Source: Botryllus schlosseri (Eukaryota). Taken from it: a DNA stretch of 64,000 nucleotides. The stretch's first letter is position 1. The number at the start of each line of letters is the position of its first letter. Positions 4,937 to 57,821 of the stretch are shown here, piece after piece. The translations under genes and the position numbers were made by a program. The stretch is from assembly GCA_051294905.1 (NCBI GenBank), contig CM119371.1:23686001-23750000 (forward strand), in the 5' to 3' direction. The notes under the pieces are model-generated. The model was not told where the DNA came from. It saw only the letters and a list, made by a program, of their open reading frames with translations, and ran no database searches.

Positions 4937-6515
4937 TAGGGTTGTCCAACATTCCATAGATTATTGATAAAAAATAACAATGAGCCCAAAAGAAGCTCAC
5001 GGGAAAGCCGTTAAGATTTCGGCCAAAGCGTTTTAAAGTAGCTGCCCAAGAATGGGCGTGCCACCGACCATAGCACGGCGAGATGACTAGTAATCAAATA
5101 ACCACGGCTCCTGATTGGCTAATTGGCTATGCTTCAATGATCACCTCAGCAACAACTTGCTGATTATGTGCTCACCTCAAGGAGTCTGCTACCCGTGGGG
5201 ATTCTGAAATCGCGTTGTTGGTAGGTTGGCAGATGATGATTTAAGATTAATTCAGGACATGTTAAGGTACGAAATACATGATGAACAATCAACAGCTGCT
5301 TCACAAAAACATCTACAGCATGACTGCTTTATTGTGAAGGAAACGGCTGTAGCCTACATGCCGTGTTTTCATCGAGGGAAAGCAAAGACGCTTATGCAAG
5401 TAGTGAACGAATTCCCCGTTTCAGAAGGGATCCATCATCAGTGAATACAAATATAAAGCTTGACCATGACACTATACTTTGTGTGAGCTTATTGGACTCA
5501 AGTTGTAGTATATAGTTGATATTTTGAATGCTCTAGGGATTGACTGAATCAGCCGGTTGTGCTTGGCAGTTATACTTACAGCAAATTGAATTCACATGTA
5601 AGTGTTGTCAAAGTCCTTAATGATGCTGCAGAAAAGAGGTGTAAAGTAAGCACAATGCTGGATATCATGTCCAAACTATGCTGGATACTATGCAGTATAG
5701 TCTGTGATTATCTTTACACCTATTTTCTGCGGGATCAATAGGGACTTTGACATACCACATTGGGTATAGCCTGTGCGAGTGTGCGTTATCATTAGGGACT
5801 TTAGCAACACTTACAATTGAATTCAATTTACTGTAAGCATCTGATGAGTGCCAAGCATAACCCGCTGATTCAGCCGATTCCAATATCATTCAAAACGTCA
5901 CCTATATATTACAGCTTGAGCCTAATAAGATCACACAAATTACGGTATCGTGTCATTGTTAAGCTTTATATTTGTGTTCACTGATGATGGATCCTTTCCA
6001 AACGGGGAATTCGTTTACCGCTTGCATAAGCGCCTTTGCTTTCCCTCGATGAAAACACGGCATGTAGGCTACAGCCGTTTCCTTCCAATAAAGCAGTCAT
6101 GCTGTAGAAGTTTTTGTGAAGCAGCTGTTGATTGTTCATCATGTATTTCGTACCTTAACATGTCCTGAATTAATCTTAAATCATCATCTGCCAACCTACC
6201 AACAACGCGATTTCAGAATCCCACCGTTAGCAGACTCCTTGAGCACATAATCAGAAAGCTGTTGCTGTGGTGATCATTGCAGCATAGCCAATTAGCCAAT
6301 CAAGGGCCGTGGTTATTTGATTACTAGTCTTCTCGTCGTTCTATGGTCGGTGGCACGCCCATTCTTGGGCAGCTACTTTCAAACGCTTTGGCCGAAATCT
6401 TAATGGCTTTCCCGTGAGCTTCTTTCAGGCTCATTGTTATTTTTTATCAATAATCTATGGAATGAGACACAATCACGGGGTATTTTTAAGATTTTCCAAA
6501 TTTTGGACAACCCTA
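4937..6515. mobile_element. Foldback hAT (hATm-like) element with ~675-bp inverted arms carrying a transposase remnant
   Basis: TIR TAGGGTTGTCCAA / TTGGACAACCCTA with TSD GTGTCCAT (4929-4936, 6516-6523). Arms ~4951-5625 and ~5787-6463 are reverse complements. ORF pieces DDLRLIQDMLRY and VKVLNDAAE resemble hATm-type NDL.../VVNDAAER motifs. Confidence 0.8.
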
Positions 6516-29752: not shown

Positions 29753-30217
29753 CTCATAACCCACATAAAAGTACTACTTTTAGTATTATGTATTTATTTT
29801 ATAAAACGTTTCAAAACCACGAGTGCTCGAACGTATAGGTCAATAGACTCCAAACATTTGCACCGCTTTATTTGGTTGATTTGAACTGATATTGCGTCTG
29901 CAGGACAAATAAAGTTCGAGTTTCAGGGTTCAAATTTACGCTAATAACTCATAATTCTTTGGGATGTCCCGAGCAATAGTCAGCCAACATATCGAAGCTA
30001 CAATCTATTCTGGCATCTTACTATCATCATTTTCAGAAATTGGGGAATGGGAATGCTAATTTCTCTTTGCCCCTCGCAGACTATGCCAAGGTTTTCCGGT
30101 AGATTATTTAGATATTTTATATTTTTTGAATGTCTGCTGTTCGACGAAATCATATGGCAGTGGCACATGAGTAGTTAATATGATCGGTCGTGACTTGGTG
30201 TTTTTAACATGGGGCTC

Positions 30218-30480
30218 TTATGGGCGGGGTGGCACGGTGCCGAGAAACCGGGGGTGGCACGGTGACCCGTATCTCTTATGGCGGGGGTGGCACGGTGCCA
30301 TTGTGTCTTATGGCGGGGGTCGCATGGTTACCTTTTCGGGTATAGGCTGCGGCGGCACGGTTCCGTGAAAACTCGTGGTGGCATGGTTACCTTTTCAGGT
30401 ATAGGCGCGGTGACATGGTGACCTTTCAGGAGAGATGATTTGACTAACGTTGTGGGTATAGGCGCGGCGGCACGGTGTTG
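30218..30480 (+). repeat. GC-rich subterminal repeats (GGC(A)CGGTG / GGTATAGGCGCGG motifs)
   Basis: Recurrent GGGGTGGCACGGTG, CATGGTTACCTTTTC and GGTATAGGC units, mirrored at ~48980-49240. Confidence 0.75.
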
Positions 30481-30738
30481 AATATGTATCAAGTAAATAG
30501 TCATGTGATTGGTCCTTAGTTAATGTGTATATCGTAAATTATTATATATGATGGCATAGTTCAGTCGTGGCAAATGACCGATCGTGTTCTAAGTCTTTCC
30601 TCGCTATTGATTGCTAGCTGAATAATACTTCAGATCGGATTATTCGCACCTTCCGTACCGCTGTTTCACACCTACAGAATAGTCTGCTGTTCACAGTCGC
30701 AGCAAGAGTCACAAGTATACACATTACACATTCATTTA

Positions 30739-31209
30739 TTACTCTGAAATCAAACTCTTCACAAAAGCACGCACAATCGTATCATTCACTTTTTTATCAT
30801 CACCAAAATTATTCAAGTATTCCTTGGCTGAAAATCCTTGAGCTCTTTTTATCAAGAATGCTATAGCATGATCTCCGCACACATCCGAAGTTTTACTTTG
30901 TAACTGTTTCCCAGTCACAGAAAATTCATCCGGCTCCAGGAATTCTATGATCTGAGGTTTTAGTGGTCCGAAACCTAGTGAATCATGAAAATGAGTATCG
31001 TCATCTCTGTACACCCAGTGAGATCCAGGCAAACTCGATTCATCGTAATTAATGGTGATAGCGAATTTTCCGTTAGTTGGTTTCTTTGGTAACTGGTCTA
31101 TCGGATAAGTCCCTAGATATAGACTTTGTGTGACAGGGTGGTTATAGAGAATATCATTAATCTCAGACAGAGCCGGCGTAGACGGCGGTTCGAATATCAA
31201 CAATAACAA
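30739..31209 (-). CDS. Polinton-type adenain-like cysteine protease, left-arm copy (no in-frame ATG)
   Basis: INYDESSLPGSHWV (His), HDSLG (Asp) and QLQSKTSDVCGDH (Gln, Cys) match the Polinton/adenovirus protease pattern. Confidence 0.8.
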   Translation of the reverse strand: MLLLIFEPPSTPALSEINDILYNHPVTQSLYLGTYPIDQLPKKPTNGKFAITINYDESSLPGSHWVYRDDDTHFHDSLGFGPLKPQIIEFLEPDEFSVTGKQLQSKTSDVCGDHAIAFLIKRAQGFSAKEYLNNFGDDKKVNDTIVRAFVKSLISE

Positions 31210-34200
31210 CGGTCACAAATTAACACTTCAAATGTGTGTGAAATAGTTTGCAAAACCCAGCGATCGCTGACAAGATAATTTCTCGGACATAATCATCTTT
31301 CGCGACTTGGTGTTAAAGACATCGATCGCTCACGCGGTGAAATTTTCGTAAGCAGTTTGTCACAGAACTTGATTTTACTCGTAAGATTTAATAAGTAACG
31401 AATATCAGACCGTCAGTGTCGGTAACTCGAATAGCGATAGATTGTCACTTATTTCTGATCCAACCCTAATCATTTGCGAAGTTGGCGTTTATTCAAAAAG
31501 GTGCGAAATAATTGTAAATCCTACGTCACTGACACGATAATGCGTCATGCATCACAATCTAGTCATAGTACGGTGTCGGAAACCTTTCGCGAGATGTTCT
31601 ATAGGTAAATTGAGAAAATCCGAAACGAAATATTTTGACTTTGGCGTAGTGTGAATTGAAATAGGATTGACAAACATGACTATCGACTTTCCCACAGTCC
31701 CATATTGATATTATACGCACATTGATTTGAAACAAGTAATGGAACATTGCAACTCTATTCGCGATCCGACTTTTCGTTTGTCAAAGAGACATCTTACCAT
31801 ACTCAAAAGAATTATTCATAATATCAACCGGTGTTAAAAATATAGTTTTCACTTACTTGATTATACCACTACAACTCGCAAACTTGAATTAATAATAATT
31901 ATTCATATGACGATAATTTTTATTCAACTGTAAAGTCCGTTACTACACTGCAAGATAAAGTATTTACTAATCGGTACATATACGACTTGGCATAACCTAT
32001 TACATTTTGAGCATACGAGATTTAAATGTCTGAACAATAACTGAGAATTAAATGATCACAATAAAATCCGTACATTACAGCGTAAAAGATGTTGGAATGT
32101 CAGCAACTCTGTACGGTCATATAGTTACTACCACTAATTTACCCGGCCAACTCGTCATGATCATTCCTGAAATCTACAAAAACATGACCACTGACTAGAG
32201 TTAACCACAAAATAGCATCGAATTTTAAATCCAGTTGTAGCTTACGTATTATTTGAATGCGGGTTATGTTTTGTTATAATTGGGTGTACGGATAAAGTAT
32301 TAGGTCTCGATATTTTAACATTTTGCCATACTCAGTCAATCAGGAAAACATTGTCAAGTCAATCCGTTTGTAACTTACCCGACCAACTCAAGCAGTCAGC
32401 CAAGCATACACGAGTCCATACAATCACTAAAACCTAAAACCCATAACAAGCTCGGTTGTATTCATATCCCAACGCATCTTTTTCATTCAACTTGAGAAGT
32501 GGTTACTATTCTGTAAGATAGAGGAATTACTACGCGGTATATTCTGCAAGACAAACTGATTATTACTCGGTATATTTTGTAAGACAAAATTAATTACTCT
32601 TCGGTACAGGGGACTTGAGCTTAACATAATATGTTTGAGTATACGAGATTTGAAAGGTCGAGCAACGTAGTTAAGAATTCATTTCTTATACGATCAAACG
32701 CCGGTGCTACATTGAAAGTTATGTTGTAAACATCCTTATTGACACATCGATTTGACATATGTAATAGTTGATCATGACTTGATTATTAAATTATTCGCGT
32801 TAATTAGACCCGGTGTTGTGGTAAAGGTTATGACAACAACAAACTTTTCACTACCGTGGTTATTAACATATTGATTTGTAAAACTATACTTGTCTGAAAT
32901 GTTCTTGATTTGAAAGATATTCCACGTTGGTACAAATCACTCTGCGTATTATGGATATCAGAAAATATTTTTACAAATGTATAGTTGTTTCCAGTAACCA
33001 AGACTAAAGATGACACAACAATTTCGTTATTCAAACATTGAACACCCGATGCAAAATGCTTTATTAGTCAAATTCGTGACGGCTAATTGAAACGACTACG
33101 TATAGAGTCAGTATATCACAATTTCATGTCGTTACTATTGAATCCAGCAATTGATACAATTTGTTATCGGAGTTGTGACAGGAATTGAAACATATGCACT
33201 TTACAGAGTGTGAAAATATCACTTTTGGATATCGAGCGTCGTTTGAAGCGTGCGACCAATACTCAATTACATCCACACTCTCTGTCGTAGGCGCTAAATG
33301 TAAAAAACATTACAAGGTTACACTTCAAGGCTTTGATCACCTCAGAAGCGATCTGGAATATCTTCAATGGGTGCACCTTATTCTATTACACTTGGGTAAT
33401 ATACAAAACTCATAGCGGTATTTAAATCGAAATATGTCCTACACTGAAATCTACAAAAATCTGTTTGTATTGTCGTTCATAGTAGTGATACCGATTTGGA
33501 CCGCCTAAAATAATTGTCATCAGACAATTAACCAGACCACTAAAAGTCGTTGTCATCACAAAAACAATTCGCATACCGTTTGCTAAATGTGTCCTATAGC
33601 TAGGCGTACTAGAATTATTTGTAAAACACACACACACGATCAGAGAAATTAGAAATCTTCCTATTGTAATTCGTCAAAGTAGATGTAATTACAGTCACTA
33701 AAAGACCTCACTTGTATGTGATTGAATCACTAGCAATTACCCCACTAAACCGGATTCCAAAGAAATTTTACTCACTCGACGGATATGAAACAAGGTCGCG
33801 TACTCGGTGTAGATCGTTTTTCTAAAGGTAAATCATATATGTCCAGCAGAAAACAATTTTCACTCACCTGGAAATGAAACCGAAGACTTCATTCAATATT
33901 TTGTTTGTGTCAAATACTTTGCAATGAACACATTTGAGTGATTGAGCTTTACATCATCAGGCTGTCATCTGTAAATCACGGTTACATCATTCTTGTAACT
34001 GTATCGTTTACCTAACCGAGTTGTATGCACAGTTTGATATTTTTGCCATTTAGCGATTGTTGAACATACCACTTCGAAATACTCCATTGATCTTAATTCC
34101 CTTTGTCGTGATAACCGAAGTAAATTATTTTTTTTTTCGAATTCGTAACAACCGACTATGACATGACGAATTTTTGAAAAGTTTTACTTAGAAGGTTGGT

Positions 34201-35809
34201 TGCATATCGCGAAAAATAATATACCACTCATATTGATACTGATTCTCACCGAACTCGATTGTGATCAATGTATGCTTTATGCGCTCGGATTCATTTCGGT
34301 ATGGTTAAACATTGAACCTCGATAGATACGAATTGACACCCACCCAGCCAATGTCATACCAAGTAGTTATTTACAACAACCAAGACACAGAAATTTGTTT
34401 TATCCGTTTCGATTTTTTTACTAGAGCTACTCATCACTTCGGTTAATACGATCTAAATTTAAACTCCGTCTATAGTTTTGCTGGATAAGAATTATGTTAG
34501 TGTAAATAATTTTCACTATCTTGGGTTATGAACTCAGTGTGTTAGCGATCATTCAATATTTTGTAGTATCAACTAGCTACTTCGTAGGATACGAATGATC
34601 ATCCCTACAACTCTTACAAAAGTACGAAGTATATTTAGATCACACAAAGTAATCAACTTTACTCGATATCCTCACACTACGAAACTAAATGTTTGGTTAC
34701 ACTCTACAAACTGTTTTTGATGTCACATGAACTTTTGTTAGATGAATGGTCACGCATCTAAATATTCAAATAATCCAACACACCTTACAGAAATATCATA
34801 GTTCTTGTAACAAAGTTGTATAAGTATAATGTTTATCGTGAGTCCTACATAGCCATGATATCCGTCCGAGTTTGACTTTTAGAAAACATTATACCGACAT
34901 CGTGACATCTTTCAAAAACAAATCCATTGCCACTGCTTCAGAGACCTACCAATGATATTGCAGTAATACAGTTACTTCCACAAAAGAGTATGTATTCGAC
35001 TTACTTACCACAAATCTAACGCACAAAACAATTTACTTTACTAACGAGAAGCGCCGAGCCTCACATCAAAACAACTAGAAAGTGGAACTATATTAAAAAA
35101 CGTCGCTAACCTTTGTGCACCAGCTGTAAATCACACAAGCAACATGTTTCAAGATTCTGGTTATTGAAAAACGTTAAAGTGTTTCTCCTGCACCAAGTCG
35201 TTATGTTGACGAAAGCGTATATTGTAATACCATGATCGATTTGCATTCGTTGGTCACAAACTGCCACTACTCTAAATAATTATTTTTCACTCAAACACAA
35301 AAGCATACTTGTCGCCAATCGTTTTCATCAAGCACGAGTTCAAGAAGCTTACTTACTACGACATGAATTGTTATTTTTATGTTGTGTAAATAGGTAATAA
35401 TTTATTTTAGTAACACTACATCAACATCATCGAGTTGTGCGAATAGATTTACATGTGGTTTTAGTCGAAGTACACAGCACGGTCTAATGTAGATTCATCT
35501 CTATTGTACAGCAACTCGGTAATCGAAATGCATTAACATTTAAACAACGATCTTGGTTCGTCACCCGAAAAATATCTTTACTGTCGCAACACTCTGACAC
35601 TCTACACAAGATGTGTAAATCCTTTTCACACTCATAACAATACACTAACGGGATACCGACGTCAAGCAACAACGTTTAACAACATCACTGACACTGAACA
35701 TACGATTCCTACCCAAGTAAAAATATCATTTTCACCAGGAGGTCAGCCGTTACTTGTGTACAATTACCATTTCCCTTTGGAGATTTATCGTTTACCCCAG
35801 TGTAACAAA

Positions 35810-36000
35810 ACCATTTTCACTTGGAAATATATGTTTTCCCTCAACAACAATCCTTTTTCACTTGGAAATCTATTTTTTCCCTGGGTAACAATCCTTTTTC
35901 ACTTGGAAATCTATTTTTTCCCTGGGTAGCAATCCTCTTTTCACTTGGAAATCTATTTTTTCCCTGGGTAACAATCCTTTTTTACTTGGTGGTCCGTCGT
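35810..36000 (+). repeat. 41-42-bp tandem repeat (CACTTGGAAATCTATTTTTTCCCTGGGTAACAATCCTTTTT)
   Basis: Unit starts at 35818, 35859, 35900 and 35942, with degenerate copies over ~35700-36120. Mirrored at ~38685-38875. Confidence 0.85.
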
Positions 36001-36887
36001 TTACCTGAGTAAAAATATCATTTTCCTTTGGAGATCTGGCGTTTACCCAGTGTAACAATACATTTTCTCTTGGTCATCTAGCTTTTCCTAGAGTAACAAA
36101 ACCATTTTCATTTTGAAATCTGACAAACACACCTGACAATTTGGTATTTGTTGTATTGACGATAGTTTGAAATAGATTACAACGAACAGTGACGGAAATA
36201 TACACCATCAACAACTCCAATACATTTGTGTAATCGCATATTCACTTGTGCTGATGCAACCCATCAAAATCATTGGTTACCCACATGCAATGTGCTGTAC
36301 ATCGACGTGTATGTTTTAGAAATTGGACAATAGGTTTCGACATGTCTGCGATGTCCGGGTTCTTGCTTTGGATTTTCCAGAGTCAAAATGTCTGAATAAA
36401 ACACCTCCTCGACGATGGTTGGTACGTGGATATCGGTGGTCGGAAAACGGTTGGATTTATGTCGCCCATCGCGATAACAATTCCGGGTCGAGTTTTCTCC
36501 CACATGTTTACTATATTGTGTCTTTATTGGTCAATGTATGTCTCGACATTCAGTTTGAAATCGGAAACCCTGATAAAGTACGTAACCGGATCCGGATATC
36601 AACCCTGAATCGATAAACCAACGAACAATATTCAAGTAAACATGTTACACCCTGTGTTTCCACGAAAAAATACCATCCAGACATACGTCGCGCTTGTTTG
36701 CCCACAAAAGTATACGCGTAAATGGAGGTGTGTGACATTGCATGCAATGTGTTGGTGTTGGTATACAAACATCGGGGAGTAAGCCTTCGATCTACAGACA
36801 TTATCATAGCCGGTAATTTTGATGCAGATCGAATGTCACCCGATAACAATGTCATACCAATAAGCCACATTGCAATGACTCTGAGTC

Positions 36888-37797
36888 CGCGCTATTACAT
36901 CGATATTTCGGCGCCGGTCACTGATTTACTCGATGGTGTTATCGTGTTGTTACATTGCAAGATAGTCATGACCCTATCTCCAGACAGATCACCCAGACCA
37001 ATTGGATACATCGAACGATATCTGTCGTGTTGTCCGAAGTTTTCTGCTGCAGCGTTTGACCAAGGTGAACTATCGAAGTACGGGTGTTCCAAATGATTGC
37101 GATCAGTCTTTTAGTCACGATGCATGGACGTCGCTACTCCCACATAACGACTCCAGATAAATATCGTGAACGGTGATTCTGTAAATCTGGGACTGGTACT
37201 GTGATCCAATAAGGTGTGTTTCTGTGAAAACTGCAATCGTACACCGCAAATAGAACACTACCTCGTGATTTCACACGTAATCATAAAACACACTTTCGTA
37301 AGGGTTTGTCCAGTTTCGAAACGGTCATCACCACAAGAGATCGGTAACATTTTGAAACGACATCATCACAAGGATATTGACATCGATTCTGTTGGTCATA
37401 TCGAAGAACATGTCAATCCGTTTTAGAATGTACCGTTTTTCAAGTTCCTGCACCATAGTGTTACGACACAGACAAGATGCGATGGTGGAAATAATAAAAC
37501 ACGGAAGGCACACTTTGGTGTTATTTGATATGGATTTTACACCAGACGAACCTCACATTCGAGCGATGCATTTGAATGGCGATTGTATTATTGATGTCCA
37601 AGGAACAGAAATGTATCGATTTATCGGTTTCGTACGTATCCAACAAAAACCTGGGTATATGATTGTGCAGTGTGCACGGTTCGCGTATTTGACTGTGATC
37701 ACAATATTGGTATGTACTGTATAGTTCACTTTCACTGTCGTGCGAATAACCATGTTACGGTTCCATGTTTGTGTGTCTGTATGTCATGCTTCAGATT
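36888..37797. other. 910-bp unique spacer (loop) of the palindrome
   Basis: Arm identity ends at ...GACTCTGAGTC (36887) and restarts at GACTCAGAGTC (37798). Confidence 0.9.
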
Positions 37798-40700
37798 GAC
37801 TCAGAGTCATTGCAATGTGGCTTATTGGTATGACATTGTTATCGGGTGACATTCGATCTGCATCAAAATTACCGGCTATGATAATGTATGTAGATCGAAG
37901 GCTTACTCCCCGATGTTTGTATACCAACACCAACACATTGCATGCAATGTCACACACCTCCATTTACGCGTATACTTTTGTGGGCAAACAAGCGCGACGT
38001 ATGTCTGGATGTTATTTTTTCGTGGAAACACAGGGTGTAACATGTTTACTTGAATATTGTTCGTTGGTTTATCGATTCAGGGTTGATATCCGGATCCGGT
38101 TACGTACTTTATCAGGGTTTCCGATTTCAAACTGAATGTCGAGACATACATTGACCAATAAAGACACAATATAGTAAACATGTGGGAGAAAACTCGACCC
38201 GGAATTGTTATCGCGATGGGCGACATAAATCCAACCGTTTTCCGACCACCGATATCCACGTACCAACCATCGTCGAGGAGGTGTTTTATTCAGACATTTT
38301 GACTCTGGAAAATCCAAAGCAAGAACCCGGACATCGCAGACATGTCGAAACCTATTGTCCAATTTCTAAAACATACACGTCGATGTACAGCACATTGCAT
38401 GTGGGTAACCAATGATTTTGATGGGTTGCATCAGCACAAGTGAATATGCGATTACACAAATGTATTGGAGTTGTTGATGGTGTATATTTCCGTCACTGTT
38501 CGTTGTAATCTATTTCAAACTATCGTCAATACAACAAATACCAAATTGTCAGGTGTGTTTGTCAGATTTCAAAATGAAAATGGTTTTGTTACTCTAGGAA
38601 AAGCTAGATGACCAAGAGAAAATGTATTGTTACACTGGGTAAACGCCAGATCTCCAAAGGAAAATGATATTTTTACTCAGGTAAACGACGGACCACCAAG
38701 TAAAAAAGGATTGTTACCCAGGGAAAAAATAGATTTCCAAGTGAAAAGAGGATTGCTACCCAGGGAAAAAATAGATTTCCAAGTGAAAAAGGATTGTTAC
38801 CCAGGGAAAAAATAGATTTCCAAGTGAATAAGGATTGTTGTTGAGGGAAAACATATATTTCCAAGTGAAAATGGTTTTGTTACACTGGGGTAAACGATAA
38901 ATCTCCAAAGGGAAATGGTAATTGTACACAAGTAACGGCTGACCTCCTGGTGAAAATGATATTTTTACTTGGGTAGGAATCGTATGTTCAGTGTCAGTGA
39001 TGTTGTTAAACGTTGTTGCTTGACGTCGGTATCCCGTTAGTGTATTGTTATGAGTGTGAAAAGGATTTACACATCTTGTGTAGAGTGTCAGAGTGTTGCG
39101 ACAGTAAAGATATTTTTCGGGTGACGAACCAAGATCGTTGTTTAAATGTTAATGCATTTCGATTACCGAGTTGCTGTACAATAGAGATGAATCTACATTA
39201 GACCGTGCTGTGTACTTCGACTAAAACCACATGTAAATCTATTCGCACAACTCGATGATGTTGATGTAGTGTTACTAAAATAAATTATTACCTATTTACA
39301 CAACATAAAAATAACAATTCATGTCGTAGTAAGTAAGCTTCTTGAACTCGTGCTTGATGAAAACGATTGGCGACAAGTATGCTTTTGTGTTTGAGTGAAA
39401 AATAATTATTTAGAGTAGTGGCAGTTTGTGACCAACGAATGCAAATCGATCATGGTATTACAATATACGCTTTCGTCAACATAACGACTTGGTGCAGGAG
39501 AAACACTTTAACGTTTTTCAATAACCAGAATCTTGAAACATGTTGCTTGTGTGATTTACAGCTGGTGCACAAAGGTTAGCGACGTTTTTTAATATAGTTC
39601 CACTTTCTAGTTGTTTTGATGTGAGGCTCGGCGCTTCTCGTTAGTAAAGTAAATTGTTTTGTGCGTTAGATTTGTGGTAAGTAAGTCGAATACATACTCT
39701 TTTGTGGAAGTAACTGTATTACTGCAATATCATTGGTAGGTCTCTGAAGCAGTGGCAATGGATTTGTTTTTGAAAGATGTCACGATGTCGGTATAATGTT
39801 TTCTAAAAGTCAAACTCGGACGGATATCATGGCTATGTAGGACTCACGATAAACATTATACTTATACAACTTTGTTACAAGAACTATGATATTTCTGTAA
39901 GGTGTGTTGGATTATTTGAATATTTAGATGCGTGACCATTCATCTAACAAAAGTTCATGTGACATCAAAAACAGTTTGTAGAGTGTAACCAAACATTTAG
40001 TTTCGTAGTGTGAGGATATCGAGTAAAGTTGATTACTTTGTGTGATCTAAATATACTTCGTACTTTTGTAAGAGTTGTAGGGATGATCATTCGTATCCTA
40101 CGAAGTAGCTAGTTGATACTACAAAATATTGAATGATCGCTAACACACTGAGTTCATAACCCAAGATAGTGAAAATTATTTACACTAACATAATTCTTAT
40201 CCAGCAAAACTATAGACGGAGTTTAAATTTAGATCGTATTAACCGAAGTGATGAGTAGCTCTAGTAAAAAAAACGAAACGGATAAAACAAATTTCTGTGT
40301 CTTGGTTGTTGTAAATAACTACTTGGTATGACATTAGCTGGGTGGGTGTCAATTCGTATCTATCGAGGTTCAATGTTTAACCATACCGAAATGAATCCGA
40401 GCGCATAAAGCATACATTGATCACAATCGAGTTCGGTGAGAATCAGTATCAATATGAGTGGTATATTATTTTTCGCGATATGCAACCAACCTTCTAAGTA
40501 AAACTTTTCAAAAATTCGTCATGTCATAGTCGGTTGTTACGAATTCGAAAAAAAAATAATTTACTTCGGTTATCACGACAAAGGGAATTAAGATCAATGG
40601 AGTATTTCGAAGTGGTATGTTCAACAATCGCTAAATGGCAAAAATATCAAACTGTGCATACAACTCGGTTAGGTAAACGATACAGTTACAAGAATGATGT

Positions 40701-43474
40701 AACCGTGATTTACAGATGACAGCCTGATGATGTAAAGCTCAATCACTCAAATGTGTTCATTGCAAAGTATTTGACACAAACAAAATATTGAATGAAGTCT
40801 TCGGTTTCATTTCCAGGTGAGTGAAAATTGTTTTCTGCTGGACATATATGATTTACCTTTAGAAAAACGATCTACACCGAGTACGCGACCTTGTTTCATA
40901 TCCGTCGAGTGAGTAAAATTTCTTTGGAATCCGGTTTAGTGGGGTAATTGCTAGTGATTCAATCACATACAAGTGAGGTCTTTTAGTGACTGTAATTACA
41001 TCTACTTTGACGAATTACAATAGGAAGATTTCTAATTTCTCTGATCGTGTGTGTGTGTTTTACAAATAATTCTAGTACGCCTAGCTATAGGACACATTTA
41101 GCAAACGGTATGCGAATTGTTTTTGTGATGACAACGACTTTTAGTGGTCTGGTTAATTGTCTGATGACAATTATTTTAGGCGGTCCAAATCGGTATCACT
41201 ACTATGAACGACAATACAAACAGATTTTTGTAGATTTCAGTGTAGGACATATTTCGATTTAAATACCGCTATGAGTTTTGTATATTACCCAAGTGTAATA
41301 GAATAAGGTGCACCCATTGAAGATATTCCAGATCGCTTCTGAGGTGATCAAAGCCTTGAAGTGTAACCTTGTAATGTTTTTTACATTTAGCGCCTACGAC
41401 AGAGAGTGTGGATGTAATTGAGTATTGGTCGCACGCTTCAAACGACGCTCGATATCCAAAAGTGATATTTTCACACTCTGTAAAGTGCATATGTTTCAAT
41501 TCCTGTCACAACTCCGATAACAAATTGTATCAATTGCTGGATTCAATAGTAACGACATGAAATTGTGATATACTGACTCTATACGTAGTCGTTTCAATTA
41601 GCCGTCACGAATTTGACTAATAAAGCATTTTGCATCGGGTGTTCAATGTTTGAATAACGAAATTGTTGTGTCATCTTTAGTCTTGGTTACTGGAAACAAC
41701 TATACATTTGTAAAAATATTTTCTGATATCCATAATACGCAGAGTGATTTGTACCAACGTGGAATATCTTTCAAATCAAGAACATTTCAGACAAGTATAG
41801 TTTTACAAATCAATATGTTAATAACCACGGTAGTGAAAAGTTTGTTGTTGTCATAACCTTTACCACAACACCGGGTCTAATTAACGCGAATAATTTAATA
41901 ATCAAGTCATGATCAACTATTACATATGTCAAATCGATGTGTCAATAAGGATGTTTACAACATAACTTTCAATGTAGCACCGGCGTTTGATCGTATAAGA
42001 AATGAATTCTTAACTACGTTGCTCGACCTTTCAAATCTCGTATACTCAAACATATTATGTTAAGCTCAAGTCCCCTGTACCGAAGAGTAATTAATTTTGT
42101 CTTACAAAATATACCGAGTAATAATCAGTTTGTCTTGCAGAATATACCGCGTAGTAATTCCTCTATCTTACAGAATAGTAACCACTTCTCAAGTTGAATG
42201 AAAAAGATGCGTTGGGATATGAATACAACCGAGCTTGTTATGGGTTTTAGGTTTTAGTGATTGTATGGACTCGTGTATGCTTGGCTGACTGCTTGAGTTG
42301 GTCGGGTAAGTTACAAACGGATTGACTTGACAATGTTTTCCTGATTGACTGAGTATGGCAAAATGTTAAAATATCGAGACCTAATACTTTATCCGTACAC
42401 CCAATTATAACAAAACATAACCCGCATTCAAATAATACGTAAGCTACAACTGGATTTAAAACTCGATGCTATTTTGTGGTTAACTCTAGTCAGTGGTCAT
42501 GTTTGTGTAGATTTCAGGAATGATCATGACGAGTTGGCCGGGTAAATTAGTGGTAGTAACTATATGACCGTACAGAGTTGCTGACATTCCAACATCTTTT
42601 ACGCTGTAATGTACGGATTTTATTGTGATCATTTAATTCTCAGTTATTGTTCAGACATTTAAATCTCGTATACTCAAAATGTAATAGGTTATGCCAAGTC
42701 GTATATGTACCGATTAGTAAATACTTTGTCTTGCAGTGTAGTAACGGACTTTACAGTTGAATAAAAATTATCGTCATATGAATAATTATTATTAATTCAA
42801 GTTTGCGAGTTGTAGTGGTATAATCAAGTAAGTGAAAACTATATTTTTAACACCGGTTGATATTATGAATAATTCTTTTGAGTATGGTAAGATGTCTCTT
42901 TGACAAACGAAAAGTCGGATCGCGAATAGAGTTGCAATGTTCCATTACTTGTTTCAAATCAATGTGCGTATAATATCAATATGGGACTGTGGGAAAGTCG
43001 ATAGTCATGTTTGTCAATCCTATTTCAATTCACACTACGCCAAAGTCAAAATATTTCGTTTCGGATTTTCTCAATTTACCTATAGAACATCTCGCGAAAG
43101 GTTTCCGACACCGTACTATGACTAGATTGTGATGCATGACGCATTATCGTGTCAGTGACGTAGGATTTACAATTATTTCGCACCTTTTTGAATAAACGCC
43201 AACTTCGCAAATGATTAGGGTTGGATCAGAAATAAGTGACAATCTATCGCTATTCGTGTTACCGACACTGACGGTCTGATATTCGGTACTTATTAAATCT
43301 TACGAGTAAAATCAAGTTCTGTGACAAACTGCTTACGAAAATTTCACCGCGTGAGCGATCGATGTCTTTAACACCAAGTCGCGAAAGATGATTATGTCCG
43401 AGAAATTATCTTGTCAGCGATCGCTGGGTTTTGCAAACTATTTCACACCTATTTGAAGTGTTAATTTGTGACCG

Positions 43475-43945
43475 TTGTTATTGTTGATATTCGAACCGCC
43501 GTCTACGCCGGCTCTGTCTGAGATTAATGATATTCTCTATAACCACCCTGACACACAAAGTCTATATCTAGGGACTTATCCGATAGACCAGTTACCAAAG
43601 AAACCAACTAACGGAAAATTCGCTATCACCATTAATTACGATGAATCGAGTTTGCCTGGATCTCACTGGGTGTACAGAGATGACGATACTCATTTTCATG
43701 ATTCACTAGGTTTCGGACCACTAAAACCTCAGATAATAGAATTCCTGGAGCTGGATGAATTTTCTGTGACTGGGAAACAGTTACAAAGTAAAACTTCGGA
43801 TGTGTGCGGAGATCATGCTATAGCATTCTTGATAAAAAGAGCTCAAGGATTTTCAGCCAAGGAATACTTGAATAATTTTGGTGATGATAAAAAAGTGAAT
43901 GATACGATTGTGCGTGCTTTTGTGAAGAGTTTGATTTCAGAGTAA
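43475..43945 (+). CDS. Polinton-type adenain-like cysteine protease, right-arm copy
   Basis: Same motifs as the left copy with two substitutions (HPV>HPD, LEP>LEL). AATAAA overlaps the stop (TAATAAA). Confidence 0.8.
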   Translation: MLLLIFEPPSTPALSEINDILYNHPDTQSLYLGTYPIDQLPKKPTNGKFAITINYDESSLPGSHWVYRDDDTHFHDSLGFGPLKPQIIEFLELDEFSVTGKQLQSKTSDVCGDHAIAFLIKRAQGFSAKEYLNNFGDDKKVNDTIVRAFVKSLISE

Positions 43946-44139
43946 TAAATGAATGTGTAATGTGTATACTTGTGACTCTTGCTGCGACTGTGAACAGCAG
44001 ACTATTCTGTAGGTGTGAAACAGCGGTACGGAAGGTGCGAATAATCCGATCTGAAGTATTATTCAGCTAGCAATCAATAGCGAGGAAAGACTTAGAACAC
44101 GATCGGTCATTTGCCACGACTGAACTATGCCATCATATA

Positions 44140-44395
44140 TGTTATGTTCGTGCATTTACGTTCGGTGTCGTAGAACTCTTTCTTTCTATAGGATTAGTAA
44201 TTTCAGCCAATCATTATTTCCTCGTGTGTCATGCTTGTATTTATACCCTGTGTTCTGTTGTCTCGTGGTCTTTTCATTTAACTGTACTCTGGATCGTGTC
44301 GCTGCCTTAAAGTCATACTGCTGTAAAATATACTGATTTCGTATTGCAACCTCGTCGTATTGAGTTATTGTTCAAACAAGATCAAGAACATAACA
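44140..44395 (+). repeat. 5' LTR
   Basis: TG...CA with 10-bp terminal inverted repeat; identical by eye to 48651-48906. Confidence 0.95.
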
Positions 44396-44397
44396 AT

Positions 44398-44415
44398 TGG
44401 TGTCAGAAGTCGGAT
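44398..44415 (+). promoter_or_regulatory. Primer-binding site complementary to the tRNA-Leu 3' end
   Basis: TGGTGTCAGAAGTCGGAT, 2 nt after the LTR. The complement of the tRNA-Leu(CAA) 3' end is TGGTGTCAGAAGTGGGAT. Confidence 0.85.
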
Positions 44416-44445
44416 TCATAGTTATTTCTGCGACGAAGATACAGC

Positions 44446-47400
44446 ATGGATTCGGGTATACTGAAGCTGCTCGAGAAGCAACAGGCAATGATGGCGAGCC
44501 TACATGAAACAATGGCAAATCAAAAAGCTCAGCTGGAGCAGCAAAATGCTCAGCACAAAGAAGATATGACGCAGCAAAAGTTGCAGCATGAGGAAGCCAT
44601 ATCGCAATTAGCACAGAGGTTGAGTCCCGGTACGTCAACATCTGAAGCTACAGCTCCCAAGTTTGATTCGTTTGTAAAATCGAAGGAGAAATGGGACCAA
44701 TATCTGCAACGATTCAACCACCACCTTGCAATTTACGGCATTTCCAATATGGAGAAGAAAAGAGCGTGTCTACTCTCATGGGTTGGACCTGAAACGTACT
44801 CGCTCCTACGTAATTTGTTTGGTGCTGCTGATGTCAGTGCGCAAACTTTCGAAGCGTTGACCGAGAAGTTGTCTACACACTTCAAGGACTCCATTCATGT
44901 GCAAGCAGCCAGGTACGAATTTTACAATTGCAAAATGCAGCCGGGACAATCGTACGCCGATTGGATCGCTACTCTACGCGGAATCTCCAAGGATTGCAAC
45001 TTCACATGCTCAAGAGAAGGCTGTGATCAAAGCTACGTTGATGAGCTAATGCGCGATCTCATCATTAAAGAAACGCCGCACGCGGATGTGAGACGGCATT
45101 GTCTAACACAAACCAATCCATCCCTTGACGACGTTCTCAAAGTAGCCGCAACACACGTGAGAACGCTGGAAACCGATAGGGTTATCCAGGGCGAGAGTAG
45201 CGGAAAAGACACTTCCATCGTCAACAAAATGACGGGAAGTTATCAGAAGGGGAGAAAACCTTCCAAATCCATCCAAGGCAATTTCCCGGAAAGACTGAAA
45301 TCCTGCAGCCGCTGTTTCATCGATCACCAGAGAAAAGACTGTCAATATCGACATGCAGTATGTCAGAAATGTGGTCGTAAAGGTCATATCAAACCTGTGT
45401 GCATGTCTACCAAACCTAGTATCACGCAACAGGTCACATCCGTCAATTTCTGCTCAGTGCCACTCCTCTCTTTCGACATCGATCAACTGTATCGACGTGT
45501 AGGAAACCAGCTCTGGATCAACTCCAGCATCAACGGCATTCCGTTGCCGACACAGTGGGACACTGGTGCACCCTCCGCCATGGTGGGATTGACTGGGTAC
45601 AAAACTTTGGGCTCTCCGAAACTCTCAGCATACCATTGCTCTTTCGTAGCGTATGGCGACAAGCCACTGAAAGTGAAAGGTATTTGCACTGTAACTGTGC
45701 AGGTGGGTTCGGAAGTTCGAGTTGGCTTAAAATTGGTGGTTCTCGACGAGCACCGTGGGCAAAACATTTTTGGTCTCGATTGGAGCGATGCTTTCTCCAT
45801 GACCGCTAAGGGAACGTCTGCTTTGGATGCAATTTCTTCGCAGATGGTCAAATCGCAATCATGTAATACTATTGACATTTCTGATTCGAACGACAAATTG
45901 GCATCTTTTCAGTCCAAATATCCCTCCGTTTTCTCTAATGTATTAGGACGATGCACCAAGACAAAGGTGACAATTCACTTGAAACCTAATGCCAAGCCCG
46001 TATTCAACAAGCCACGCCCTTTGCCTTTCGCAAGGCAAATCGCTGTTCAAACCGAATTGGATAGATTAGTCAATCAAGGTATCCTCGAACCAATCAATTA
46101 CAGTGATTGGGCAGCACCAATTGTTGCCGTCACTAAATCTAATGGATCAGTACGCATTTGTGGTGACTTCAAAGCATTGAATCAACAGATTCAGATAGAT
46201 CAACATCCCCTGCCCTCCTTGGATGAAATCCTTCACAAGTTACAGGGTGGTTGTATTTTCACGAAAATTGATCTTGCCGATGCTTATTTTCAGCTTGAAT
46301 TAGATGATGATGCGAAGAATTTGTGTGTCATCAACACGCAATTCGGTCTATTCCGTTATCGACGCATGTGTTTCGGAGTCGCATCTAGTCCCGCAAATTT
46401 TCAACGCTGTATTGATGCCATGATCGCCGGCTTACCCGGTGTTGCTAGTTTTATCGATGACATAATCGTTACTGGCATTGATGAACGCGATCATTTTCGC
46501 AACTTATCGCTACTCTTTGAGCGCCTCACCGAATACGGTTTCACCGTCAACTTCGCTAAATGTGAATTTTTCAAAAGTAGTATCGAGTACCTTGGTCACA
46601 TAATCGACAAGGACGGCAAACGCCCGTCTCACAAATCCGTTGAAGCAATCAAACAGTTGCCTAAACCTCAGGATGTTCGCCAGCTACAGGCATTCCTGGG
46701 CAAAGTCAATTATTATCGCGCGTTTATTCCTAATTTCACGAATAAAGCCGCTGCCTTGTACCGTCTTCTTCAAAAAGACGCGGAATTCATTTGGAATGCG
46801 GACTGTGACGCAGCTTTCCGCATTCTCAAAAACGCCGTAATCGACGCTACGCAGTTAGCTCATTATGATGTAAACAAGCAGCTCATTTTGTCAACTGATG
46901 CTTCTCAATTCGGAATCGGCGCTGTCCTCTCAATCGAGCACAATGGCGAAGAGAGACCGATCGCGCACGCATCGAAAACACTTTCCGATTCGCAAAAATC
47001 CTACTCTCAAATGGAGAAGGAAGCTCTGTCAATCATTTACGGAGTCACTAAATTTCGTCAATTCTTGTATGGTAGAAAATTTACGCTCGTAACGGACCAC
47101 AAACCGCTTTTAGCTATTTTCTCGCCGTACAAGAAGATTCCCGTGATTACAGCGCAACGCTTACAGCGATGGGCACTAACGCCCATGGCTTATCAATACG
47201 ATATTCGCTATAAACCGACTAATCAGCACGGAAACGCCGACGGTTTATCTCGCCTACCAAAGGGTCCAGACCCTGAGTTTGACGAACTGGAAATTCGTGA
47301 AAACGCGGAGATCGTTCACGCTATTAATATGGCATTCGATGGCTTACCGTTAACTCGCAATGAAATTCGCGACGCGACGCTGAAGGACAAAACCATGAAA

Positions 47401-48357
47401 CTAGTAAAATTATCTGTCACTCATGGTAATTGGAATCCAAAGACGCACATTGATGATTTTTCTTGGTTTTCGACTCGCAAACATTCGCTTTCTCTGCACG
47501 AAGACATAGTCATGCTCAATATTGATGGTTTTCAGCGCGTAGTAATTCCGCAGTCACTTCGCTCGCGAGTCTTATCATTGTTGCACGAAGGACATTGGGG
47601 TATCGCGAAAATGAAGCAGATGGCTCGACGCTACATCGCATGGCCTTCTATTAATCGCGACATTGAAAATCTCGTTAAGAGTTGCGACGATTGCCGTAAG
47701 GTAATGAAAGCGCCTGATCGTCAGTATCGCGAATGGCCTAAAACTTCTGAAAGCTTTGAACGAATTCACTTGGATTTCGCAGGTCCAATAAACAATAAAA
47801 TGTTTCTTGTCATCGTCGATGCGCATTCGAAATATCCTTTCGTTAAAGTAATGAATGTCGGTTCTACCACAACCTTGTGTGTGGTCAACGCTTTGAGGGA
47901 CGTCTTCGCTATCGAAGGCTTGCCCATAACAATTGTCACGGATGGCGGGCCGCAATTCACATCGAATGAATTCGATACGTTTTGCTCTAATTTGGCAATC
48001 AGCCATATCGTATCACCGTCTTTTCACCCTGCCTCGAACGGGGAAGCGGAGCGTTTCGTCCATACTTTGAAAGCTGGATTAATAAAAAATTGCGACGGGG
48101 GAAAAGATCTCAACTTCGCGCTCCAAACACTTCTCGCAACGTACCGATGTGCACCGCACCCGGGCATAGACTGGAAAACGCCTGCCGAGATTTTACATGG
48201 TCGACAGCCGCGCAATTTGTTGAGTTTGTGCTCGCCCTTCGACAAATCGAAACCCGTTACGCCTAGACAATCAGTCACTCATTTTGAGATTGGTTCCTCG
48301 GTTTACGCTCGCAGTTACCGAAGCGAAGCGGACCAAAGTGGGTTGCTGGCGTGGTGA
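44446..48357 (+). CDS. Gag-Pol polyprotein, single ORF, C-terminus frameshifted
   Basis: Zinc knuckle CQKCGRKGHIKPVC, protease WDTGA, RT (RICGDF, DLADAY, FIDD), RNase H (TDAS, EKEAL, TDHKPL), and integrase HHCC with D-D-E (LDFAG, TDGG, NGEAER). Confidence 0.95.
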   Translation: MDSGILKLLEKQQAMMASLHETMANQKAQLEQQNAQHKEDMTQQKLQHEEAISQLAQRLSPGTSTSEATAPKFDSFVKSKEKWDQYLQRFNHHLAIYGISNMEKKRACLLSWVGPETYSLLRNLFGAADVSAQTFEALTEKLSTHFKDSIHVQAARYEFYNCKMQPGQSYADWIATLRGISKDCNFTCSREGCDQSYVDELMRDLIIKETPHADVRRHCLTQTNPSLDDVLKVAATHVRTLETDRVIQGESSGKDTSIVNKMTGSYQKGRKPSKSIQGNFPERLKSCSRCFIDHQRKDCQYRHAVCQKCGRKGHIKPVCMSTKPSITQQVTSVNFCSVPLLSFDIDQLYRRVGNQLWINSSINGIPLPTQWDTGAPSAMVGLTGYKTLGSPKLSAYHCSFVAYGDKPLKVKGICTVTVQVGSEVRVGLKLVVLDEHRGQNIFGLDWSDAFSMTAKGTSALDAISSQMVKSQSCNTIDISDSNDKLASFQSKYPSVFSNVLGRCTKTKVTIHLKPNAKPVFNKPRPLPFARQIAVQTELDRLVNQGILEPINYSDWAAPIVAVTKSNGSVRICGDFKALNQQIQIDQHPLPSLDEILHKLQGGCIFTKIDLADAYFQLELDDDAKNLCVINTQFGLFRYRRMCFGVASSPANFQRCIDAMIAGLPGVASFIDDIIVTGIDERDHFRNLSLLFERLTEYGFTVNFAKCEFFKSSIEYLGHIIDKDGKRPSHKSVEAIKQLPKPQDVRQLQAFLGKVNYYRAFIPNFTNKAAALYRLLQKDAEFIWNADCDAAFRILKNAVIDATQLAHYDVNKQLILSTDASQFGIGAVLSIEHNGEERPIAHASKTLSDSQKSYSQMEKEALSIIYGVTKFRQFLYGRKFTLVTDHKPLLAIFSPYKKIPVITAQRLQRWALTPMAYQYDIRYKPTNQHGNADGLSRLPKGPDPEFDELEIRENAEIVHAINMAFDGLPLTRNEIRDATLKDKTMKLVKLSVTHGNWNPKTHIDDFSWFSTRKHSLSLHEDIVMLNIDGFQRVVIPQSLRSRVLSLLHEGHWGIAKMKQMARRYIAWPSINRDIENLVKSCDDCRKVMKAPDRQYREWPKTSESFERIHLDFAGPINNKMFLVIVDAHSKYPFVKVMNVGSTTTLCVVNALRDVFAIEGLPITIVTDGGPQFTSNEFDTFCSNLAISHIVSPSFHPASNGEAERFVHTLKAGLIKNCDGGKDLNFALQTLLATYRCAPHPGIDWKTPAEILHGRQPRNLLSLCSPFDKSKPVTPRQSVTHFEIGSSVYARSYRSEADQSGLLAW

Positions 48358-48617
48358 CGGAAATACTGGGGCGTGTTGTGTACATCATAAAAACAGATCA
48401 TGGGTATTGGAGGAGGCACAAAAACCAACTCCAACCACGCTTGATTTCCACTGGTCATGATACAGCCGCACAGGAAGTTGCTCAGCCTCAACAGTCCCAA
48501 GCTGAGCAACCATTGGTCAGGAATAGGGCACAACGTCCTGCAGCTAGCCCTGCTCGATCGTCGGGCAGACGTTATCCTCTGAGAAATAGGAAACCCACCG
48601 ATTTCTATAGACCGTAA
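48329..48617 (+). CDS. Out-of-frame integrase C-terminal domain (GPKWVAGVVTEILG...RRHKNQL)
   Basis: Becomes continuous with the main ORF if one copy of CGAAG (48319-48328) is removed. Confidence 0.75.
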
Positions 48618-48640
48618 ATGTGGGCAACCCTCTAACTTAC

Positions 48641-48649
48641 AAGGGAGGA
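48641..48649 (+). promoter_or_regulatory. Polypurine tract
   Basis: AAGGGAGGA just upstream of the 3' LTR. Confidence 0.8.
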
Positions 48650-48650
48650 C

Positions 48651-48906
48651 TGTTATGTTCGTGCATTTACGTTCGGTGTCGTAGAACTCTTTCTTTCTAT
48701 AGGATTAGTAATTTCAGCCAATCATTATTTCCTCGTGTGTCATGCTTGTATTTATACCCTGTGTTCTGTTGTCTCGTGGTCTTTTCATTTAACTGTACTC
48801 TGGATCGTGTCGCTGCCTTAAAGTCATACTGCTGTAAAATATACTGATTTCGTATTGCAACCTCGTCGTATTGAGTTATTGTTCAAACAAGATCAAGAAC
48901 ATAACA
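48651..48906 (+). repeat. 3' LTR
   Basis: Identical by eye to the 5' LTR. Confidence 0.95.
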
Positions 48907-50102
48907 ATATATATTAATTTACGATATACACATTAACTAAGGACCAATCACATGACTATTTACTTGATACATATTCAACACCGTGCCGCCGCGCCTATAC
49001 CCACAACGTTAGTCAAATCATCTCTCCTGAAAGGTCACCATGTCACCGCGCCTATACCTGAAAAGGTAACCATGCCACCACGAGTTTTCACGGAACCGTG
49101 CCGCCGCAGCCTATACCCGAAAAGGTAACCATGCGACCCCCGCCATAAGACACAATGGCACCGTGCCACCCCCGCCATAAGAGATAAGGGTCACCGTGCC
49201 ACCCCCAGTTTCTCGGCACCGTGACACCCCGCCCATAAGAGCCCCATGTTAAAAACACCAAGTCACGACCGATCATATTAACTATACTCACATGTCTATC
49301 AGGGTTACATGGGCATCCTTATTGTCGGACCACTAAGAGACACATTATTTCAAAGCTTATACATATGGTCCAATCGTGCTTGTGATATTGCAACAATTCA
49401 ATGTTTCTGTATTATTCTCAATGTTGCTGTAGCATTCAGGTTGACTAACTGAGTGTGCTATTGGTAATGCACCCAATATATTGCCATTTTGAAGAATGCT
49501 ACACTATAGGATCCGTTTTTAGTTACCAATAGACATTTGCCATTCTTTTGAGTTGTAAATCTGGATTCCCAACTCCTTTAGCAACCCATGGTAACAGTTC
49601 TATACCAATGACAGTGTCACGGCAATACTAGGCTTACCATACGTCCTCTTTTAAGAGGATTTGTCCTCTTTCTTGACTTTTTTGAAAGTGTCCTCGGAGG
49701 ACGCCCTTTTGTCCTCTTTTTTGAGATTTTGTCCTCTTTTTTGAAAATTTAGGTCAGATTTAGAGGAAATTGCGAGTGATATGCCGCAAATTAGCGCAGA
49801 AGTGAAGCTCCGGCGGGTGTTTTGGAGGGAAAAGCGGTGATTTTAGCTCTGAGCGAAAAGAAGGCCTTTTTACATCACTAGGCCTGCTATCCCTAATATC
49901 TTCATCTTGATCCCAATTATCGAGCGTAGAGGAGTGTCAAGTTACACTGGGTAAGATGAATGGGGCATTGGACCTATAGCTGATAGTAAATGTAATGTTT
50001 ATTTTTCCTTCATATCCTGCAGTTTGCAATTAATATGAGGCTGAAATATCCTCGGATGACTGTATCTTCTAACCAAAAATGGATGAAAGAATCGGCCTAG
50101 AT

Positions 50103-57237: not shown

Positions 57238-57821
57238 TAGTGTCCTATATGGTGTCGACACAGGCAAATCTCACGGCTCAGTGAAATTGTATCACACCAC
57301 AACTTCCATTTGGCTACAGGCAATTTGACGGTCATTTATGACCGGCTTGCCGAGCATTAAATTTGGTTAAACGGGTATCAATCGAAAGCTGACTCTGCAC
57401 TGATTACGAAAATATAAATTTTATTCCGATCGTGGCCCTGGAACTCCCACAATCAGCCTCGAATTTTTCATTGTTATAGAGATTGGCATTGGGACGCAAC
57501 AATGATGAACAATGTGGTCTGGCTCTTTTTCTCTTGAGCTACTCTCTCGTTTCGCCAGACAGCATTGTTGCATCCCAATGCCAATCTCCTTAACAATGAA
57601 AAATTCGAGGCTGATGGTGTGAGTTCCAGGGCCACGAGAATAGAATTTATATTTTCGTAATCAGTGTCAGCTTTCGATTGATACCCGTTTTACCAAATTT
57701 AATGCTCGGCAAGCCGGTCAAAAATGACCGTCAAATTGCCTGTAGCCAAATGGAAATCGTGACGTGATACAATTTCACTGAGGCGTGAGATTTGCCTGTG
57801 TCGACACCATATAGGACACTA
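57238..57821. mobile_element. Fully palindromic MITE (TAGTGTCCTATATGG termini; possibly P-like CATAG ends)
   Basis: Two ~280-bp inverted arms meet near 57530. The true left end appears to be CATAGTG at 53938, displaced by the 53945 insertion, with direct repeat (C)GTGTGAG at 53930-53937 and 57823-57830. Confidence 0.8.

Follow-up and report, generated by a model that had tools for sequence, protein, structure and literature searches.

A giant palindrome with Polinton-type ends lies in a 64,000-nucleotide stretch of Botryllus schlosseri DNA (NCBI GenBank assembly GCA_051294905.1, contig CM119371.1, positions 23,686,001 to 23,750,000 of the forward strand), hereafter called the window and numbered from its first letter. 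We conclude that this element is very probably a long-lived, helper-dependent Polinton satellite belonging to a high-copy family of giant palindromes. Its ends are shared with an autonomous Polinton of the same genome, the family has been inserted many times independently, and no enzymes of its own are carried.

Structure of the palindrome and size of the family

Self-comparison of the window revealed two inverted-repeat arms (30170-36887 and 37798-49288) on either side of a central loop (Table 1). After a Gypsy insertion in the right arm had been set aside, the arms were 6,718 bp (left) and 6,719 bp (right) long and differed in 23 columns, namely 20 substitutions, one 2-nt indel and one 1-nt indel. 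A preliminary description, made from the letters of the window, had proposed two arms of about 6.7 kb around a 910-bp spacer and a CACATG target site duplication (TSD) outside both ends. These features stand, the TSD being a perfect 6 bp and the flanking DNA unrelated. The same description had taken 30164..49294 as one palindromic unit, which is right as regards the inverted arms but passes over the 4,767-bp Gypsy element. Because the total span of ~19.1 kb (30170-49288) holds this insertion, the palindromic element itself is ~14.35 kb long, and ~93% of it is palindromic. The AGT termini that had been described are present as AGTAGT on the left, but the right terminus, AGTATAGT, is two bases longer. 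The arm-loop boundary of the window copy is common to other copies with the same loop type, and 41/83-bp tandem repeats near the inner end of the arm are kept across the palindrome family and were not found in helpers. Searches of the arm and loop by tblastn with helper proteins gave no polymerase, integrase, ATPase or capsid match, and neither region had an Rfam match. The element is non-autonomous, as the preliminary description had held on recognising none of these four genes, but a conserved gene in the loop had been overlooked.

Exact-motif counts across the 495-Mb genome, which are lower bounds, gave 973 + 966 matches for a terminal motif (a few of them double counts or unpaired) and 0 + 2 for the reversed control. 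An inner-arm motif had 685 + 698 exact matches, mostly in inverted pairs ~1.85 kb apart among the 100 listed. The palindrome family therefore has ~690 members. Gene-carrying Polintons that share its termini but have short terminal inverted repeats (TIRs) number at least 83, a figure taken from 83 exact matches of a helper capsid motif, so that palindromes outnumber the helper by about 8:1. Of what had been sought, further copies with different TSDs and an autonomous element with the shared ends are present in the genome. First-look candidates numbered 2,339 for the terminal 400 bp, 1,098 for the loop and 502 for the protease, and 40, 40 and 150 of them, respectively, were scored.

Insertion sites were compared in a sample of 31 end pairs drawn from the first 100 terminal matches on contig 1; two pairs already sampled, the window element, a 55-kb pair and, from a nested triple, the two outer pairs were omitted. 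Among the 31, one is a gene-carrying Polinton and 30 have the family core. The 6-bp TSD was perfect in 27 of the 31, had one mismatch in one and failed in three, which agrees with the earlier view that the palindrome was integrated as a unit. AGTAGT-type ends with a 6-bp TSD were seen family-wide, the same as in the helpers. Among the 27 perfect TSDs of this sample, judged by eye, the central dinucleotide is CG in 15 and CA or TG in 8, and this by-eye reading suggests a pyrimidine-purine target preference common to palindromes and helper. Nested palindromes were also observed (L071-L074 and L075-L077), together with three nested end pairs on contig 1 near 16.77-16.81 Mb.

The probable helper Polintons

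Five helpers were fetched. Their termini are the same as those of the palindromes, their TIRs are 443-1,120 bp long and their interior is non-palindromic. Four measure 15,055-16,507 bp, and the fifth, of 18.3 kb, has a disrupted protease. The preliminary description had named an autonomous parent with long TIRs as the case that would reduce the palindrome to a simple internal deletion; since the helper TIRs are short, the palindrome is not such a deletion. The helper genes encode pPolB (PF03175), an integrase with chromodomain, an ATPase with an A32-like match below the cut-off, a 423-aa protein and a protease. For the 423-aa protein 115 homologues were found, some named F54H12.2-like, which we take to be the Polinton major capsid protein. 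The protease gene sits after this capsid gene, and four of the five helpers read have open frames for capsid, ATPase and protease. A Pfam search of the genome for PF03175 gave no match, a false negative since the helpers carry the domain. A 217-aa helper protein that is captured by some palindromes had no Pfam or PDB match, and 'OB/SSB' is a presumed label for it. A second Polinton family (L166-L167) has the same gene order, with 39-80% protein identity to the main helper. Between helper L053 and helpers L062, L065, L069 and L123, DNA identity is 80-91% in the polymerase region and 96-98% in the structural module; these sequences suggest that polymerases may have been swapped among helpers.

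Helper-derived ends around a family-specific core

Positions 1-999 of the window arm match the helper, and the inner 5.7 kb and the loop have no blastn or tblastn match to it. The inner arm and loop also lack a match to the second Polinton family, and the 115 capsid homologues gave 0 matches in 20 arms. The protease of the window element is 94% identical to that of the gene-carrying Polintons, with an Atlas feature score of 0.97 to adenovirus endoprotease (Peptidase_C5) clusters, so the Polinton affinity proposed for the ends and the protease is supported. Pfam and PDB sequence scans with the protease gave no match, and a single-sequence fold had a predicted local distance difference test score (pLDDT) of 34. 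An adenain-like protease had been described in each arm; the frame is indeed found in both, but it lacks a methionine in the window copy, where the protease, judged from its sequence, is likely to be a dead passenger.

The captured helper sequence differs from copy to copy around the same core. In five other copies the protease end of the helper extends to 877, 1,015, 1,167, 1,226 or 1,235 bp, in four copies the opposite helper end is captured to ~1.5 kb, and others have TIR sequence only. In the copies compared, the captured end is present in both arms, and palindrome ends match the helper with identities of up to 97-98%. Copies L059, L083, L126 and L138, with different loops, carry ~1.5 kb of the helper's other end, and in three of these four a 214-codon frame is open; modules appear to have been shuffled between palindrome copies. 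In L093-L096, L099, L100, L103 and L104 the protease is an open frame of 192-194 codons whose upstream methionine comes from sequence foreign to the helper, and the protease of this subfamily could be an expressed variant. None of the other recurrent arm frames, of 40-74 aa, matched the loop gene in the clarity of frame-specific selection. The inner arm behaves like stuffer, with no clearly selected open reading frame.

Long inverted arms with internal tandem repeats around a variable centre are features of foldback transposons such as Drosophila FB and Galileo, and the core of the palindrome is not Polinton-derived. An unrelated foldback transposon of the FB/Galileo or Mutator type, with its own transposase and captured Polinton-like ends, is nevertheless highly improbable, as the 6-bp TSDs and AGTAGT ends are identical to those of the helpers, the ends follow the helper as closely as stated above, and no transposase-coding member was seen among the copies fetched (the genome was not scanned exhaustively).

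The loop gene

Of the 43 fetched copies matching the start motif of the loop gene, 41 yielded a frame of 91-93 codons whose start and stop are fixed, and this frame is broken or truncated in a few further copies. It forms two subfamilies, A and B, that are ~60-66% identical in protein. Across 40 gap-free copies, the ratio of nonsynonymous to synonymous substitution rates (dN/dS) was 0.37 within A, 0.29 within B and 0.34 between them, pairwise values that are not independent of one another. The shifted sense frames gave 0.7-8.9, and the codon-aligned antisense frame was also low, as expected. By these substitution ratios, the loop gene is under purifying selection. The loop gene of the window matches the family for ~86 residues, then diverges and ends at 104 aa. 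Loop length is 864-984 bp in 21 of 24 copies.

The loop protein found only its own family in two sequence databases, had no Pfam match and stayed below 0.9 in Atlas. The best AlphaFold model is all-beta with a pLDDT of 69 (the other four models, 33-41), and Foldseek searches of PDB and viral libraries gave no match at E 0.001. A likeness to small heat shock proteins in weak Foldseek rows was not accepted, and a match to the helper ATPase (E 0.002, one subfamily only) is likely due to chance and conflicts with the all-beta model. Over the loop 14, 23, 21 and 7 RNA reads were counted in four runs of 1.3-1.9 billion letters each, densest over the first half of the gene in three of the four, so that its expression is low at most in the sampled runs. 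Two copies at different loci (L083/L084 and L114/L115) have a common 339-bp loop, no loop gene and a length of 13.7-13.9 kb. The gene is therefore not needed in cis, and its absence from these two copies makes the protein a likely satellite factor able to act in trans.

These results bear on the proposal of the preliminary description that one end of a resident Polinton was copied back onto itself and integrated as a snap-back defective genome. The helper protease end mirrored in both arms is what a single copy-back event would leave. However, neither Polinton family matches any of the loop or 5.7 kb of the 6.7-kb arm; elsewhere in the palindrome family the same core lies between mirrored copies of the opposite helper end or of the TIR alone, and the loop gene has diverged into its two subfamilies. 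As only ~1 kb of the arm is helper-derived, and the rest is an old and diverse family with its own selected gene and members with different helper ends, such an origin of the window copy is highly improbable, although an ancient copy-back origin of the whole family is still conceivable.

Arms kept alike within a copy

Arm identity is 97-100% within copies; between copies, median identity is 82% over 62% of the length (190 pairs from 20 copies). Nineteen of the 20 substitutions in the window could be scored against other copies. At each of the 19, one arm agrees with the base usual in the family; the deviating base belongs to the left arm at 9 sites and to the right arm at 10. The window arms were therefore identical when inserted and have since drifted apart. 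In copy L051/L052, both arms carry a solo long terminal repeat (LTR) with its 5-bp TSD (L051:830-1125 and L052:7955-8250; 1 mismatch in 296 bp). It belongs to the same Gypsy family as the window insertion and is 94% identical to it. A solo LTR with TSD in both arms means that a chromosomal insertion into one arm was mirrored later. Together with the captured helper ends found in both arms, it indicates that the arms are rewritten from each other.

We hypothesize that the palindromes multiply in four steps, the first three read from footprints in the sequence and the fourth held more weakly. First, the helper polymerase and integrase would, very probably, act in trans on the shared ends. Second, there is a good probability that a displaced single strand would fold on itself to give a 6.7-kb stem closed by a 0.9-kb loop, that the duplex end of this structure would be an origin, and that incomplete strands would be completed or repaired on the opposite arm. 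Any change in one arm would then, ahead of the next insertion, be either erased or copied into the other arm. Third, recombination with co-replicating helper DNA would rather likely bring fresh ends, which would then be mirrored by the second step, and this would be the source of the window protease. Racket-shaped intermediates have been invoked for Polintons. For protein-primed linear plasmids they are invoked in the available part of PMC1864894. The fourth step concerns length and is taken up below.

Large inverted repeats are known to undergo gene conversion, and chromosomal conversion between inverted copies, not extrachromosomal replication, could equalise the arms. The differences in the window are more concentrated in the outer 2 kb than towards the loop, with 15 of the 20 arm substitutions in the outer 2.06 kb of 6.72 kb (30170-32222; binomial p 6e-5, with the boundary chosen after the fact), and this clustering hints at some conversion after insertion, perhaps nearer the loop. 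On the other hand, private mutations have accumulated in both arms of the window copy, one-sided insertions persist in many copies, the window Gypsy among them, and older-looking copies have arm identity down to 97%. Conversion as the main cause of arm identity is therefore unlikely. The same private mutations that separate the arms also argue against an assembly artefact from fold-back chimeric reads. Among the contig pieces listed no bridge over the left junction was found, and the palindrome is known from the assembly. However, a retrotransposon with its own TSD lies in one arm alone, distinct perfect TSDs occur at 27 of the 31 sampled loci, and the loop is constant and carries a selected gene. 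All this makes an assembly error very unlikely, to the point of being negligible.

Length and possible packaging

The 22 single-block copies (15 from the contig-1 sample, 6 from earlier matches and the window copy) measure 12,123-14,741 bp with a mean of 13,694 bp, that is, 77-93% of the mean helper length; copies with one-sided insertions or deletions were left out of this set. Two later single-block copies are 13,692 and 13,690 bp long. Arms compared pairwise across copies have a median of 4.9 kb of unaligned sequence, yet a median length difference of 362 bp. By analogy with adenovirus, such a steady length despite arm turnover suggests a capsid size limit. According to the accessible sections of PMC4189039, adenovirus genomes rearrange when their length falls below 75% or exceeds 105% of normal, and a gutted adenovirus vector of 15 kb was packaged as direct and inverted dimers. 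The length band and this adenovirus analogy make a packaging limit plausible. The fourth step, in which a packaging size window would hold the length at ~77-93% of the helper with the doubled arm as stuffer, has in our judgement slightly less than an even chance of being correct.

The palindromes may instead be intracellular non-autonomous derivatives that depend on the helper but are never packaged, with a length set by the geometry of replication or integration or by common descent. This alternative departs from the satellite mechanism in the fourth step only and is a serious possibility, if short of an even chance. In its favour, virions of the helper are hypothetical, and short copies of 3.3-11 kb exist. 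Seven short copies examined look lopsided or centrally deleted, and for the one near-symmetric short copy the junction was found at its own locus only, among 40 scored candidates. Against a derivative that is never packaged stand the conservation of length while kilobases of arm sequence turn over, the open capsid, ATPase and protease frames in four of the five helpers, and the 13.7-13.9 kb retained by the two copies without loop gene.

Several points weigh against the reading of the family as a helper-dependent, possibly packaged satellite. Besides the short copies and the clustering of window substitutions in the outer arm, the length band rests on selected single-block copies (15 of the 30 core-bearing members of the contig-1 sample), the model does not account for the inner arm, no relatives of the loop protein were found beyond its own family, and few RNA reads (7-23 per run) cover the loop. 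Moreover, the family is known here from assembled sequence.

Other features of the window

The Gypsy insertion has a 5-bp TSD at 44135-44139 and 48907-48911, and its LTRs (44140-44395 and 48651-48906) are identical to each other. The gag-pol frame (44422-48357) encodes 1,311 aa with reverse transcriptase, RNase H and integrase domains. A short second frame (48288-48617) overlaps the end of gag-pol, which suggests a frame break near the integrase C-terminus; the LTRs are identical all the same. Smaller, unrelated inverted repeats of foldback type or resembling miniature inverted-repeat transposable elements (MITEs) lie in the window flanks (4950-6464, 15529-16429 and 57238-57821).

Table 1. Coordinates of the palindromic element and its parts in the window
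Feature	Position	Strand
TSD, left copy, CACATG	30164..30169	
Left arm, 6,718 bp, begins AGTAGT	30170..36887	+
Helper-derived end: TIR-like sequence and protease end of autonomous Polinton, 88-97% DNA identity	30170..31168	+
Putative adenain-type protease frame, 157 codons, without methionine	30742..31212	-
Family-specific inner arm, ~5.7 kb	31169..36887	+
41/83-bp tandem repeats near inner arm end; mirrored at 38563-38925	35760..36122	+
Central unique loop, 910 bp	36888..37797	
Loop gene	37410..37724	+
Right arm, inner part	37798..44139	-
Mirror copy of protease frame	43472..43945	+
Gypsy-type LTR retrotransposon, later insertion into right arm	44140..48906	+
Right arm, outer part, terminus with two extra bases	48912..49288	-
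TSD, right copy, CACATG	49289..49294	

Comparison with known systems

The founding description of Polintons is reportedly that of Kapitonov and Jurka in 2006. In the part of PMC8097293 available here, Polintons/Mavericks are defined by (AGT)2 or (AG)3 termini and a 6-bp TSD, and published TIRs are 46-1,447 bp long in that source and 100-1,500 bp in the corresponding part of PMC10748475. The palindrome shares with autonomous Polintons/Mavericks the (AGT)2 ends, the 6-bp TSD, a protease putatively of adenain type and the 13-25-kb size class. It differs from them in being a palindrome without pPolB, integrase, ATPase and capsid, with 6.7-kb arms in place of the TIRs of ~0.05-1.5 kb given there. 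Like non-autonomous Polinton derivatives and MITE-like DNA transposons, it keeps the ends, is presumably moved in trans and outnumbers the autonomous copies. Unlike those derivatives, it did not arise by internal deletion of the helper and does not shrink; it also has its own selected gene and swaps ends with the helper. The anole survey, in the portion at hand (PMC3014272), reports no non-autonomous Polinton derivative.

A parallel in design is the gutted adenovirus vector, as presented in the extract of PMC4189039, with a protein-primed linear genome, helper ends only plus stuffer, and short genomes doubled to packageable inverted dimers. However, gutted vectors are laboratory constructs and do not integrate, and packaging of the palindrome would be by analogy. 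Copy-back defective-interfering genomes and the hairpin or palindromic derivatives of the yeast linear plasmid pGKL1 likewise mirror one end around a small unique centre and depend on a helper. They are transient and consist wholly of helper sequence, whereas the palindrome is an old integrating lineage with a non-helper core. Phage satellites such as P4 and SaPIs are integrated and helper-dependent, with small genes of their own and a genome size tied to the capsid, a tie that for the palindrome would hold by analogy. The palindrome differs from them in being eukaryotic and palindromic, and it has neither integrase nor replicase of its own.

Full-text literature searches, including the available parts of PMC6431247, PMC8097293, PMC3014272 and PMC10748475, gave no description of palindromic Polinton satellites; Repbase and supplements were outside the search, so long-armed non-autonomous entries may exist. 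Polinton surveys, as far as their methods appear in the accessible sections of PMC8097293 and PMC10748475, pick candidates by core genes and would therefore miss the palindromes.

Significance

As a rough estimate, ~690 copies of 13.7 kb would place ~2% of the genome in near-perfect palindromes. The family bears on the replication mode of Polintons and on whether animal Polintons form virions. The mirrored passengers would be the trace left by an intermediate that folds back during replication, and the fact that an element with few genes remains close to its helper in length points to a packaging limit. If the palindromes are packaged, they would represent a new class of eukaryotic virus satellite. 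We tentatively suggest, at rather less than an even chance, that in this family an animal polintovirus has a natural 'gutted vector', a satellite of long standing that would fill the helper capsid by doubling a 7-kb half-genome, with its ends refreshed from the helper and an orphan 91-aa protein biasing helper replication or packaging. If this were true, the length band would be genomic evidence that the helper Polinton makes particles.

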